A stretch of DNA of 64,000 nucleotides from assembly GCA_030324005.1 (NCBI GenBank), contig JARDVH010000106.1, positions 53,615,774-53,679,773 of the forward strand. Reading direction: 5' to 3'. This DNA is from Negaprion brevirostris (taxonomy: Eukaryota). Every line of letters starts with the position of its first letter. The stretch's first letter is position 1. A program made the translations under genes and the position numbers. The notes beneath the pieces were generated by a model that saw nothing but the letters and a program-made list of their open reading frames with translations, did not search any database and had not been told where the DNA came from. This document shows positions 9,801-36,250 of this stretch, piece after piece.

Positions 9801-9920
9801 TTAACTGGCTGTATTCTCAGCTATTCCAATGACTCCCCAGGCTAAACCTGTTGCAGCATTCCCTGTTATAAGGCTCTCTTCATTTTCACCCTTTCCTAGA
9901 TCATCTTCTTCTGCCTGAAT
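9801..9920 (-). CDS. SOD1-like paralog b, exon 5 coding part: [39 protein letters not shown]
   Basis: AAG acceptor. His120 is Gln, Arg143 is Gly, Cys146 is Trp. TAA at 9803-9801. The five exons sum to 516 nt (171 aa plus stop) with no frameshift. Confidence 0.95.
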
Positions 9921-10464
9921 CTTTAAAATGTAAAACAAAAATCAGTCAGCATCTATGTTAAAAAGATTTAAATAGTCCTCTTGGTTATGCAAGCAGAATC
10001 AGATATGGACATTACATAAGCATTTTATCAACTATCAAAATGCGTCAATAGTGAAGTCCAAAGACAAGTTCTATTTCTTTTTCAAGTGACAAACTGGTTT
10101 TAAAAAAAAACAATTTCATCTCAAACTTGAGGGGTACATCTCAAATTTCTCATTATTTTCTTACCAAATATAAGAGGTATATGCCCACAGTTGTCACACC
10201 AGCTTTCACATTTAACATGAAAGCTGATCATGTTAGCTTTCATAATATGAAATTTCATAATTTCATGAAAATTATATGAATTTTATTCATGTATATCAAA
10301 GGTCCAATTTTCAACAGCCAAAAGTGAAAGCATCACAAATTGTTTTTTTTGAAAAAAAACTCTTGTTTTAGGCACTGTTAAAGCAACCATGTTCTTTATT
10401 TTTCACAAAACATCAGTCTCTCATTCAGATATGAAGCAAAGAATGTTGATTCAGCTACCATATT

Positions 10465-10702
10465 AGAACATAAGAAATAGGAGCAGGAGTAGGCCATCTA
10501 GCCCTTCGAGCCTGCCCCGCCATTCAATAAGATCANNNNNNNNNNNNNNNNNNNNNNNNNNNNNNNNNNNNNNNNNNNNNNNNNNNNNNNNNNNNNNNNN
10601 NNNNNNNNNNNNNNNNNNNNNNNNNNNNNNNNNNNAGCCTAGTTTATTCAGCCTCTCCTCATAGCTCAACTCCCTCAACTCTAGTATCAGCCTAGTAAAC
10701 CT
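10465..10702 (-). mobile_element. CR1/HER1 LINE 3' end (gap inside)
   Basis: MRELSYEERLNKLG and a tail nearly identical to those at 6135 and 44817. Confidence 0.85.
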
Positions 10703-11644
10703 AATATTAGTATATAATAGTATTATTATAGAGATAGACCCCAGATTGAGGTCAAACGTGCAATGAAACTGCTTGCTTGTGGAGGGTATTTTCCGGACAA
10801 ACCATAAACAAACTGAAAATTACATTCAATATTGAACAATTTTTATCTCAGCATTACAATAGCATTGTGAGCAGTAACGCAATAATAAACAAGTTTTTCT
10901 TTTTAACAAACTGAGTTAAGCTGGTGAATCAGATGTCAGCTCCATAAAAATACTTATTAATTATATAAATAACTGTGAATGATCATTTACCTTGACTACA
11001 ATCTTTTTAGATCTTTGCTTATTTTCTCATGTGTCAACAATGTTCAAAATAAAACTCAGGTTTTCTTTAAAACTTCAATTTACCCAGGTTTTTTGGGGTT
11101 CTATTTTCCCACTGATTAATTTGCCAAAAAGTAAAACCTAAAACCAACAGATTTTAATGAATAGTATTTGACAACAGCCTATAACTCAGCAGATTGTTAA
11201 TCAGGTTTATTTGGTATCACGAGCTATATCATACGAGTCCAATACCAGCATCTCGACATCAGATTGTTCATATTAGACAGTATAAAGGTGGCCATGATAA
11301 AAAAAATTCTATGTTGCACACACTATTTGTTTCCTTTTGTCTCAGTACATGCAAGGTAACAAACTATGTTCACTTAGAGAGTTCTGCCCTTTCAATAAAC
11401 AACAGATTTGGATATTAAGGGCATAGCTGACAGTAAATGCCAACTGCTCAAATCCCAGGAGGGAAACTTGAAACAACTGTTCCTACATTTATGTTTTTGC
11501 ATTTATATAGTATGAAGAAAGGTTTGAAGATCCAGAAATTATATCTCCAATTACTTGTAATGATTTTACAGTAAAGTAAATGCAATAAGAAATAGGAAAA
11601 CAATAAAATAAAACTACACTTAAAGATGACAATGGCTTTACATA

Positions 11645-12320
11645 GTACCAATACTTAAAATCAGTGGTGAGCAATGTGCTGTCTGTGGACCACATGAGGC
11701 TCATCAGGGCACTGTGTGCAGCCCAGGAAGTATCCTCCAGAGGTTCCCAGCAACACAGATGCCAGTCTTCAACCAATTTGATTCACTATGTGATATCAAG
11801 AATTGGTTGAGGACACTGCAAAGGCTATGGACAGTGTTCTAGCAATAGCTCTGAAGACTTTTCTTCAGAACTTGCTAATGCAGCTACAACACTGGCATCT
11901 ACCTAGCAGTGGAAAATGGCCTAGGTATTTTCTGTCCATAAAAAGCAGGGCATTATCCAACCTACTGCCGAATTACTGCCCAGTCTACTCTCAACTGTCA
12001 GTAAAGTGATGGAAGAAGTCACAAACAGTGCAACCAAGCAACATTTACTCCGCAATAATCTGCTCACTGATGCTCAGTTTTTGTTCCACCAAGGCCAGTC
12101 AACTCCTAACCCTACTATAGTCTTGGTTCAAAATTGACAAAAGAGTTGAACTCCAAAGGTGAGATGAGAGTGCTTGGCCTTGATATCAAGACTGCATTTA
12201 ACCAAGTGTGAAATCAAGGAGCCAAGAGAAAAACTGGATTCAGGGGAAAAAAACTCTACCAGCTGAAGTCATACCTAGCACAAAGAAAGCTATTCGTTGC
12301 ATGCCAGTCATCTCAACTCT
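11645..12320 (+). mobile_element. CR1-clade LINE RT fragment, same family as 1985-3460
   Basis: Shares gatgccagtcttcaaccaatttgattcact and aagagttgaactccaaaggtgagatgagagtg...ccttgatatcaag with 2040-2440. Confidence 0.8.
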
Positions 12321-34149: not shown

Positions 34150-34955
34150 TATTTCACAGGATGTGTGTGTCACTGACCAAAAAAGCATTTATTGCCCACC
34201 CTAATTGCCCTTGAGAAAGTGATAGTGAGCTGGCGATACAACTGATGCAGTGTATTTGGATGTAAGTACACCCACAGTGTTGTTGTGGAGCGAGTTCCAG
34301 GATTCTGACCCAGCAACTTAGTTCCAAGTTAGACTGATGTATGGCATGGAGGGCACTTGCAGGTGGTGGTGGTTCCATGTACCTACTGCCCTGTCCTTCT
34401 AGGAGGTAGAGGTTGCAGGTTTGAAAGGTGCCTCAAAGGAGCTTTGGTGAGTTGCTATAGTGCATCTTGCAGAGGTTAACTTAAACCTTAACTGATTAAT
34501 GTTTTTCAATAACTGGCTGCAATAATTTACCATAGGGTTAAACCTCAAGTTTCTCCTCATATTAAAATATCAGCTTCCAAATATTTGCCCCATTTTGCAT
34601 CACAGGACTTAGGAGCAGGAGGAGAACATTTGTTCCTTTGAGCCTGTTCTGCCATTCAACATGATTATTGTTATTCTGGTTGATATCTCAGCTCCACTTT
34701 ACCTCCCCAGACTCCCTTGTGTGTCAAACTGTAACTCAGCCTTGAATAAATTTAAAGACCTAGCCTCCACCATTTTCAGGAGAAAATAATTTCTCAGACT
34801 AAAGACCTTCTGTGGGAAAAAAGTTCTTTATGCCCTCTAGTTTTAGTTTCTCCCATAAGAGAAAACATCCACTGAGTAGTCATCCCATCAAGTTACATGT
34901 TACGTTAACATTACCCCTCACTCTTCTTAACTGCAATGGGTTTAGGCCCAACCAA
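34150..34955 (-). mobile_element. Two LINE 3' fragments (about 34150-34470 and 34605-34955)
   Basis: The first is the reverse complement of the 3150-3460 tail. The second starts with the CR1 tail ttaggagcaggaggag...tttgagcctgttctgccattcaa. Confidence 0.75.
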
Positions 34956-35216
34956 TTTCTGAATAGTTACTCATAAAAGGCTACCATCTGTGTAGCATTA
35001 CCGTACTGCAATCCATCCACTCCACAAAATAGACAATTTCACATGCTTCTTCTATTTGTTTTGGCGAACAGCCTTTTCATTAATTTAAAATAGGTTGCTG
35101 ACAATTCATCCAAGAGTGGAAAGTGTCAATACATATATTTGTACTGGAACTCTTAATTTGAAGTCTTATATTTTAGCATTGCAACTATTAAGCCTAGAAG
35201 GAAACTTAGTACCCAC

Positions 35217-35334
35217 CACCAGAGTTCGTCCAATAACAGAATGAAATCCTGTCAGATGGAAATGCTCCACCTTGATATCAAGCTTGGCCAAGCCATCTTC
35301 ATTAACCTCCACGTTGCCCAAGTCACCTGCATGT
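35217..35334 (-). CDS. SOD1-like paralog a, exon 4 (118 nt): [39 protein letters not shown]
   Basis: TAG acceptor, GTG|GTGGGT donor, exactly 118 nt. His80 and Asp83 kept. 22/39 aa identical to the canonical exon 4 by hand count. Confidence 0.95.
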
Positions 35335-36180
35335 CTACAATGGATGGAAAGTGCTTTGTTTTAAAGAATCATAGAATTTTGCATCACAGAGGAAGTCCAT
35401 TCAATCCATTAACCAAGATTGCTTCTCTGAAAGAGATATTGGTGTAGTATAATCTATTCTTTACCCAAACTCTCTCTTTTGTGCATATTATACACCTTTA
35501 CTTGTTAAGTTCTATTTCCATCACTGTTCTTCTAGGATATTTCATGTCTTAACAATTCTCCAGATAAAACACAAAACTTCTAAACCCTCCTCTTGTTTCA
35601 TTTAGCAATGATCTTAAACTTACAATAAATATAGATTGCATACAACCACTGCTTTAGGTGTTAGAGACTGATATTGATCCAAGTCCCTGAAAGAAAATCT
35701 ACCTCAGGCCCTCTGATCTTTGTAGCCTGCCACTCTTCATCCCTCCTATTGAAGAAGGATTATGCATAATGGCTCCAATCCAATTCTGTTGGGTGTCCTC
35801 ATGTAGGTGCCTTGACAGATGAAGACGATGGCATTCAGATTAGCTTCATTTATAAAGGCTGCTGTTCGCTTGTTCCTGTTTTTAGACACATACACCCACT
35901 TTGGAAGAATTCCCCAAGAAAATCACAAGGCAATGTGGAATAATCCTTAATAAGGAAATGGACACATGATATCTTGGATCTTCATTTTCTTTTCTGCTGT
36001 TTTACATCAAGAATTAAATATTTCCTTGCCACATTGGAGAAGAAACCCTCCCCCACAAAAAAAATGTACTAATACCATGAAGTTGCATATCTCAGAATTA
36101 AAATTACATGCATAAGCAATCAGTGTATTTTTACAAAAAGTGTGTTTCATTTCTGACATCACTGCTGAAACATAACTCAC

Positions 36181-36250
36181 TTCTTCTTCTCTTCTGGTGC
36201 ACCATGAGTTTCATTATCTGGATTGTAATGAGGTCCTGCACTGATCCAAC
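36181..36250 (-). CDS. SOD1-like paralog a, exon 3 (70 nt): [24 protein letters not shown]
   Basis: TTTCAG acceptor, AA|GTGAGT donor, exactly 70 nt. His63 and His71 kept; Cys57 is Trp. Confidence 0.95.

Follow-up and report, generated by a model that had tools for sequence, protein, structure and literature searches.

Why does a shark keep, directly behind its gene for Cu/Zn superoxide dismutase (SOD), SOD1, several further copies of this gene whose products lack Arg143 and cannot form the SOD1 disulfide? The question is raised by a 64,000-nt stretch of the Negaprion brevirostris genome (assembly GCA_030324005.1, contig JARDVH010000106.1, positions 53,615,774 to 53,679,773; referred to as the window), which was read together with its flanks in the same genome. 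We report that a conserved array with three or four extra SOD1 copies is present in sharks, rays and chimaeras, and that these copies, here called a, b, c and d, constitute a real, old, apparently undescribed family derived from SOD1. As read from the aligned proteins, the shared ancestral state of the family is Gly143, Trp146 and an aliphatic residue 53; an earlier note on this DNA suggested that an aromatic pair at positions 57 and 146 may have replaced the disulfide in the lineage of a and b, but this pair is not the replacement present in the ancestor. The note thus had the right signature, the wrong pair and the wrong clade. Tentatively, we suggest that the copies serve as non-catalytic partner subunits in the maturation of SOD1.

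Six-frame motif searches and exon reading gave three SOD1-type genes in the window, SOD1, a and b, and with the flanking stretches the tandem array reads SOD1, a, b, c, d in strand order, all of these genes being on the minus strand. Hence four derived copies follow SOD1, and c and d were absent from the earlier note. SOD1 exon 1, most of c, and d were read from stretches beside the window, the end of d being located 69 kb before window base 1. Paralogs a and b have five exons each with AG/GT borders, SOD1 intron phases and open frames of 165 and 171 residues, respectively; open frames and splice sites are likewise intact in d and in as much of c as can be read, the first five codons of c exon 5, position 120 included, being masked by N. 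The array paralogs encode proteins of 158-171 residues with one Pfam domain each. Sod_Cu (PF00080) was matched by 7/7 proteins tested, and orthologs of a, b, c and d reach 135-149 bits against a cut-off of 28.9. The copies are 57-61% identical to the neighbouring SOD1, and a and b are 52% identical to each other (81/156), close to the divergence of about 45% estimated before. A 17-base pattern for the motif around residue 146 matches the window three times, in a, b and SOD1 (0.28 expected; 0/100 shuffles reach three). The exons are as follows.

Outside the window, window-equivalent 64635-64700 (stretch L001), minus strand: canonical SOD1 exon 1
57347..57440, minus strand: canonical SOD1 exon 2 (His46, His48)
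54766..54835, minus strand: canonical SOD1 exon 3 (Cys57 TGT 54831-54833, His63, His71)
48948..49065, minus strand: canonical SOD1 exon 4 (His80, Asp83)
48421..48531, minus strand: canonical SOD1 exon 5 (His120, Arg143 CGT 48457-48459, Cys146 TGT 48448-48450, stop)
46639..46707, minus strand: paralog a exon 1, CpG-rich surroundings; its N-terminus agrees with orthologs P0001-P0004
38246..38339, minus strand: paralog a exon 2 (His46, His48, GDLT), also on a spliced contig of run X4
36181..36250, minus strand: paralog a exon 3 (Trp57 TGG 36246-36248, His63, His71)
35217..35334, minus strand: paralog a exon 4 (His80, Asp83), joined to exon 5 in contigs of runs X1, X4 and X9
32594..32740, minus strand: paralog a exon 5 (His120, Gly143 GGT 32666-32668, Trp146 TGG 32657-32659, acidic C-terminal tail, stop)
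22899..23012, minus strand: paralog b exon 1, CpG-rich surroundings, with a 14-residue loop I insertion also found in orthologs
22098..22191, minus strand: paralog b exon 2 (His46, Cys48, Asn52)
18647..18716, minus strand: paralog b exon 3 (Tyr57 TAC 18712-18714, His63, His71)
16681..16798, minus strand: paralog b exon 4 (His80, Asp83)
9801..9920, minus strand: paralog b exon 5 (Gln120, Gly143 GGT 9846-9848, Trp146 TGG 9837-9839, stop)
7880..7969, minus strand: paralog c exon 1 (orthologs P0019, P0021, P0024, P0025, P0027, P0029, P0052)
6-18 kb before window base 1, minus strand: paralog c exons 2-5 (Tyr46, Cys48, Tyr57, Gly143, Trp146)

Both a (32642-32668) and b (9822-9848) read GLAWGVIGI where SOD1 (48433-48459) reads RLACGVIGI, with Trp57 in a and Tyr57 in b, exactly as first noted, and Gly143 and Trp146 are present in all four paralogs of this genome. 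We extended the comparison to a table of 29 family members (a, 5 rows; b, 6; c, 8; d, 9; and one chimaera gene of a combined a/d type). Gly143 is found in 29/29 rows, where an active SOD1 has Arg143, and Trp146 in 28/29; the exception, chimaera b, has Cys146 together with His57, so that no row (0/29) carries both cysteines and the disulfide is impossible throughout, in keeping with the earlier claim for the a/b lineage. Residue 53 is aliphatic in 29/29 rows, versus Asn in 18/18 vertebrate SOD1 proteins. Position 57 behaves differently: it is Trp in 5/5 a rows and 6/6 further cluster members, Tyr in 5/6 b rows (sharks and rays) and four of four more, Tyr in 5/8 c rows with Asn, Thr and Ile as the others (and Cys in one catshark model outside the table), and Cys in 8/9 d rows, including the d of this genome, as well as in the chimaera a/d-type gene. 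Of the three positions that the note expected not to vary freely among orthologs, 143 is invariant, 146 nearly so, and 57 fixed in a and in shark and ray b, mostly Cys in d and drifting in c.

On the tree described below the fewest changes needed are one for residue 143, at the base of the family that holds a and b, two for residue 146, seven for residue 57 and four for the aromatic state at 57; a single loss of Arg143 therefore stands. Each signature codon lies one base from the canonical codon, except that the Tyr codon TAC is one base from the other Cys codon. Since Cys57 is kept in d and residue 57 drifts in c, Trp57 and Tyr57 arose separately and later. The family ancestor likely had Cys57, Gly143, an aliphatic residue 53 and, because these are complete in a, in the chimaera a/d-type gene and in two d rows, all four copper ligands; it probably had Trp146 as well.

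As a search signature, the proposed GLAWGVIG finds 11/29 members and misses the rest, whereas G[LVIA]AWG[VI]IG finds 28/29. Gly143 and Trp146 combined occur in 36/37 family domains and in 0/362 non-family SOD domains among the proteins fetched (the best-scoring 120 of 6,926 and 150 of 11,642 matches plus one further search). In this sample Cys146 is missing from 143/362 domains, most of which keep Arg143 and have mainly small or polar residues at 146; Trp146 accompanies loss of Arg/Lys143 in 2/4 cases versus 13/139 otherwise (p=0.055), a weak association among rows that are not independent. Similar states occur in unrelated animal SOD-like domains, namely in those of the cyst nematode Heterodera (P0159, P0292, P0293; Ala143/Trp146/Cys57), in one of the bug Lygus (P0230; Gly143/Met146/Trp57, Ala46) and in the unnamed protein P0290 (Pro143/Phe146), possibly by convergence. 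In many unnamed multi-domain proteins (P0146-P0183 and others, with 2-12 SOD repeats) Arg143 and the copper histidines are retained, but both disulfide cysteines are absent.

The phylogeny (50 proteins, IQ-TREE, LG+C20, rooted with three non-vertebrate SODs) left out partial, isoform or fused models (P0005, P0009-P0012, P0015, P0018, P0020, P0023, P0026, P0047, P0057, P0084), the later cluster members P0294-P0306 and most bony-vertebrate SOD1 matches, and the set was without lamprey, hagfish or chimaera canonical SOD1. With all columns the family is supported at 99/93, b+c at 99/96 and a together with the chimaera a/d type and d at 94/78; with columns 57, 143 and 146 removed the values are 92/86, 98/97 and 94/81, and with exon 5 removed the family has 94/87 and b+c 100/98. 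The grouping is thus independent of the signature and of any conversion of exon 5. Moreover, Cys48 and Asn52 are common to b and c, and loop I is extended in both, by 14-15 residues in b and by 3-7 in c. The longer loop I of bacterial group 3 SODs touches the disulfide subloop (PMC8382915; papers cited by PMC number are drawn on in excerpt). A clade of a and b, which the earlier note presumed, is rejected by the approximately unbiased (AU) test with all columns (p=0.018) and without columns 57/143/146 (p=0.009); when eight diagnostic columns are removed it is not rejected (p=0.171) and b+c drops to 75/81. With the topology ((b,c),(a,d)), a and b trace back to no later ancestor than the one shared by all four copies. 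A grouping of chondrichthyan SOD1 with the family has AU p=0.23, and the family may have arisen inside the chondrichthyans or earlier.

Orthologs, obtained through searches of 90% protein clusters and cluster look-up, are present in galeomorph and squalomorph sharks, rays and the chimaera Callorhinchus under no database name other than "superoxide dismutase [Cu-Zn]" or "-like". In Callorhinchus a single 81-Mb contig carries genes of three types, b, c and one a/d type. The accession numbers of a and b directly follow one another in four sharks; the cluster searches gave no a ortholog from rays or chimaera. The a of this genome is identical to that of Mustelus at 161/165 positions and 86.8% identical to that of Rhincodon (SOD1 versus Hemiscyllium, 87.5%), while b is 84.2% identical to that of Pristis (SOD1, 84.9%) and 82.9% to that of Mobula (SOD1, 82.9%). 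Ortholog identity is near that of SOD1 for a, b and c, suggesting selection about as strong as on SOD1, and lower for d. Pairwise ratios of nonsynonymous to synonymous substitution (dN/dS) among the five genes of this genome are 0.21-0.61, by a crude NG86 estimate near saturation. Certain catshark and sawshark gene models (P0047, P0057, P0023) fuse array neighbours (b+c, a+b), either as annotation chimeras or through read-through.

Contigs bearing on expression were taken from public runs of related organisms that we guessed to be RNA, none being on record as such. Paralog a is spliced at the predicted borders in three of four runs (X1, X4, X9), one 898-base contig spanning exons 2-5, and the fourth, X16, had no joined record for a among the contigs listed. 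Other than a spliced b contig discussed below, the listed b contigs cover single exons, with further parts beyond those listed, and one contig covers c exon 1. The SOD identified in a catshark sperm proteome is scyTo_0006156 and not the a ortholog scyTo_0011685, and one supplementary file of PMC11083954 had no match. AlphaFold models of the Rhincodon a ortholog and the Stegostoma b ortholog have mean confidence (predicted local distance difference test, pLDDT) of 91.6 and 89.5, with low confidence at the inserted loop I segment of b and the acidic C-terminal tail of a; on SOD1 structures the models superpose with a root-mean-square deviation (rmsd) of 1.0 Å over 152 columns, and with Z 28.3 and rmsd 0.9 Å over 152. 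Because the models are confident and SOD1-like, residues 57 and 146 are predicted by homology to be neighbours in both. A search of the ESM Atlas returned only generic Sod_Cu clusters.

The metal sites differ among the copies. The zinc ligands His63, His71, His80 and Asp83 are each kept in 29/29 rows, as is Asp124. The copper ligands His46, His48, His63 and His120 are complete in 5/5 a rows of the tree and in six more cluster members, and loss of catalysis, which the earlier note placed in the ancestor of a and b, is consequently not established for a. They are also complete in the chimaera a/d-type gene and in two d rows (Heptranchias and Hemitrygon). In this genome they are incomplete in b (Cys48, Gln120), c (Tyr46, Cys48) and d (Asn120); among orthologs, b and c have lost His48 and His120, elasmobranch c also His46, and 7/9 d rows His120. 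Cys48 is present in 6/6 b rows and 5/8 c rows, and Cys67 (exon 3), Phe in shark SOD1, in 8/8 c, 9/9 d and the chimaera a/d-type gene; with Cys57 in d or Cys48 in c it could form a new thiol site. Net charge is -12 to -17 in a and -3 to -8 in SOD1 (-14 versus -6 in this genome). The docking motif is GDLT in 5/5 a rows and GDIS in 9/9 d rows and is changed to GN (Asp52Asn) in b and c. Finally, the dimer backbone is retained, with Gly51 and Gly150 in 29/29 rows, Ile151 in 28/29 (Ile/Val in 29/29) and Gly114 in 28/28 aligned rows.

How might such proteins act? The chaperone CCS docks on SOD1 at GDxT; in the complex Arg143 shifts between positions 57 and 146, and release is driven by formation of the disulfide (PMC6383938); residues 53, 57, 143 and 146 make up one coupled site in which Arg143 swings between the cysteines and bonds Asn53 (PMC6383938, PMC8247289). 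It is exactly this site that the family has changed, with the docking backbone retained. We favour, while rating it somewhat short of probable, the reading that a-d are zinc-binding, non-catalytic (a at most weakly catalytic) proteins that pair with CCS or SOD1 and thereby adjust how SOD1 matures. SOD1 would have duplicated before the chimaera-elasmobranch split, and one copy would have taken Arg143Gly, a change of Asn53 to Leu, Ile or Val, and probably Cys146Trp, with Trp146 likely filling the room vacated by the Arg side chain and the disulfide. The partnerless Cys57 would then have been kept in d and replaced by Trp in a and by Tyr or others in b and c, a change eased by Trp and Tyr codons each lying one base from a Cys codon, and the copper site would have been lost in b and c (His48Cys, His120 replaced) and in most d (His120) while a kept its four ligands. 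As disulfide formation releases SOD1 from CCS, a and d, which may dock through GDxT/S and are unable to form the bond, would retain CCS; b and c, with Asp52Asn and no copper site, would be zinc-only partners resembling CCS domain II. A more specific version, possible if on the unlikely side, is a set of host-encoded decoys kept since before the chimaera-shark split, in which a and d would trap CCS and b and c would be copper-free heterodimer partners. Poxviral inactive SODs sequester CCS (PMC7605207); if the version holds, the decoys would be a cellular equivalent of the poxviral pseudo-SOD, through which superoxide signalling could be adjusted from within. A small residue 143 together with a bulky residue 146 also occurs in a nematode and an insect SOD-like protein.

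Several observations weigh against the partner reading. A pure decoy need not keep the four copper ligands seen in a, the chimaera a/d-type gene and two d rows; human SOD1 carrying C57S is still 10% active (PMC6614508, citing Sea et al.); conservation is weaker in d (71-82%) than in SOD1 (84-88%); and catshark a (P0005, P0057, outside the tree set) has Tyr at zinc ligand 63. Interface side chains are altered per subfamily (Phe/Leu54 in b, Asp152 in d, a polar residue 5 with Leu/Ser50 in most c), so that the partners may differ from SOD1 and CCS, and the binding steps of a-d are inferred throughout. In the only spliced b contig listed, exon 3 runs directly into exon 5 and exon 4 is missing. Cys146 in chimaera b, at two changes, leaves the timing of Cys146Trp unfixed. 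A separate idea, that the paralogs substitute for a lost CCS, was dropped because this genome contains the terminal CCS exon, in which the Ala-Arg interface pair and the CXC motif are intact (stretch L034, near 505959); this exon was missed by Sod_Cu and HMA genome searches and recovered with a motif pattern.

A different view is that a and the family ancestor represent a retuned copper enzyme, in which Gly143 would widen the channel for slower dismutation or for thiol, sulfide or peroxide chemistry and copper would be loaded without the CCS-driven disulfide, b, c and d having degenerated to other roles. We regard this as unlikely: the complete copper ligands of a, the chimaera gene and two d rows speak for it, as do the residual activity of disulfide-less SOD1 and the many non-family domains (143/362) that do without Cys146 and mostly keep Arg143, and copper loading independent of CCS exists (PMC8247289), but the superoxide-orienting Arg143 (PMC6383938, PMC8247289) is Gly in every family row and the strong acidity of a opposes superoxide guidance. 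The family differs from SOD1 at the position concerned. There, a neutral residue leaves about a tenth of the activity or less, a value our literature searches did not return. The excerpt of PMC12071975 contains nothing on Arg143 mutants. More doubtful, in our view, is a role for the copies in buffering or sensing zinc (or copper), or as structural scaffolds, in homo- or heterodimers of their own without contact with SOD1 or CCS. Of the metal sites only that for zinc is kept in all rows, Cys48 (b 6/6, c 5/8) and Cys67 (18/18 in c, d and the chimaera a/d-type gene) offer new thiol ligands, and interface residues are specific to each subfamily; against this, one zinc per 160 residues makes a poor buffer, and a and d retain the CCS docking motif.

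That the disulfide gave way a single time to an aromatic 57/146 pair, in an ancestor specific to a and b, and that this pair stabilises the fold now appears very improbable, and as an ancestral, required state the pair is largely refuted. Trp57/Trp146 is indeed fixed in a, Tyr57/Trp146 in shark and ray b, Tyr57 recurs in c (5/8), one of the three column sets does not reject a+b, and within the a and b subfamilies the two residues may well pack against each other. Yet the other two column sets reject a+b, b+c reaches 100/98 without exon 5, residue 57 needs its seven changes, d and the chimaera a/d-type gene pair Cys57 with Trp146, c is varied, chimaera b has His57/Cys146, and the single-base proximity of Trp and Tyr to Cys codons makes the aromatic states easy to reach. 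The pair is not needed for the SOD1 fold, as follows from human SOD1 Cys57/146Ala, which keeps the fold with a deviation of 0.2 Å (PMC6383938), from d and from the outside domains lacking Cys146. Hardly credible, finally, is that the copies are decaying duplicates or that gene conversion of exon 5 spread the motif. The dN/dS values, crude as they are, would allow decay, and a-b identity is 75% in exon 5 versus 64-65% in exons 2-4; however, exon 5 identity is also 73% for SOD1-a and 73% for SOD1-b, the family is recovered without this exon, frames and splice sites are intact, and shark, ray and chimaera orthologs have identities near that of SOD1.

Other features of the locus and genome deserve mention. 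The first exons of a, b and c each lie within a CpG-rich stretch, and a GC-rich palindromic motif is located 35-45 bases upstream of the start codons of c (8005-8016), b (23056-23067) and a (46742-46753), these being its only three matches in the window (0.76 expected; 6/100 shuffles reach three); the motif resembles the NRF1 site. About 56 kb beyond d, on the opposite strand, is a CID-domain gene, an exon of which reads like SCAF4/SCAF8; SCAF4 is the 3' neighbour of human SOD1. Elsewhere in the genome there are two intronless, broken SOD1 copies, i.e. processed pseudogenes (L026 ~5890-6060, plus strand; L030 ~2990-3450, minus strand), and one or more further intron-containing SOD-fold genes with Arg143 intact and an ACC motif (L031 ~5170-5300, minus strand; L029 199-355, plus strand; other contigs), whose L031/L029 exons differ from SOD3 (L032) and CCS (L034).

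Vertebrate Cu/Zn SOD-fold proteins are commonly counted as SOD1, SOD3, CCS and CSRP, and the four-gene family would add a branch to this list. It was not found described in the full-text literature searched, which covers few subscription journals, and gene-family tables of shark genomes could list the expansion; in the excerpt of a 2026 review on SOD derivatives, coverage is limited to CCS, Cu-only SODs and CSRP, and the word "shark" appears once, for CSRP (PMC13017621). SOD4/CSRP is a different family (PMC10416458). Cu-only SODs and CSRP/SOD4 are likewise derived SOD-fold families present in sharks (PMC13017621, PMC10416458), but in these extracellular proteins zinc and the electrostatic loop have gone and the disulfide remains, which is the opposite loss: the shark copies keep the zinc ligands and a full loop VII and have lost the disulfide. 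In bacterial group 3b CuZnSODs and yeast CCS domain II the disulfide is replaced by a hydrophobic contact (PMC8382915), a precedent for the idea of the earlier note; the group 3b enzymes are of an unrelated lineage, and section 6 of that paper, as excerpted, does not mention Trp146 or loss of Arg143.

With CCS domain II (PMC13017621, PMC6383938) b, c and most d share the SOD1 fold, a zinc site and a broken copper site, and insect CCS is an example of a chaperone without copper delivery (PMC13017621). Unlike CCS, the shark paralogs have no ATX1-like domain and no C-terminal CXC, and where CCS has Ala231/Arg232 they have Gly150 and Ile/Val151 in 29/29 rows; human-type CCS keeps the Arg and the disulfide. 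The pseudo-SODs of leporipoxviruses (myxoma, Shope fibroma; PMC7605207) are single-domain, inactive SOD1 homologs, and the proposed common principle would be to sequester CCS and lower SOD1 activity; the viral proteins are directed at the host, while the shark copies are host-encoded and make up four conserved subfamilies. These considerations call for caution in counting "superoxide dismutase-like" shark genes as extra antioxidant capacity. With vertebrate SOD1 itself the copies share the five exons, the fold (to about 1 Å in models), the zinc ligands, Asp124, the electrostatic loop and the dimer backbone. They differ by Gly143, the missing disulfide and an aliphatic residue 53 and, outside a and a few d-type rows, also by an incomplete set of copper ligands. 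They represent naturally occurring SOD1 folds, selected over a long time, that lack the disulfide and in which the copper site was lost stepwise, and since loss of the disulfide and the copper site is tied to misfolding in human SOD1, residues 53, 143 and 146 and loop I are directly testable as compensating changes.

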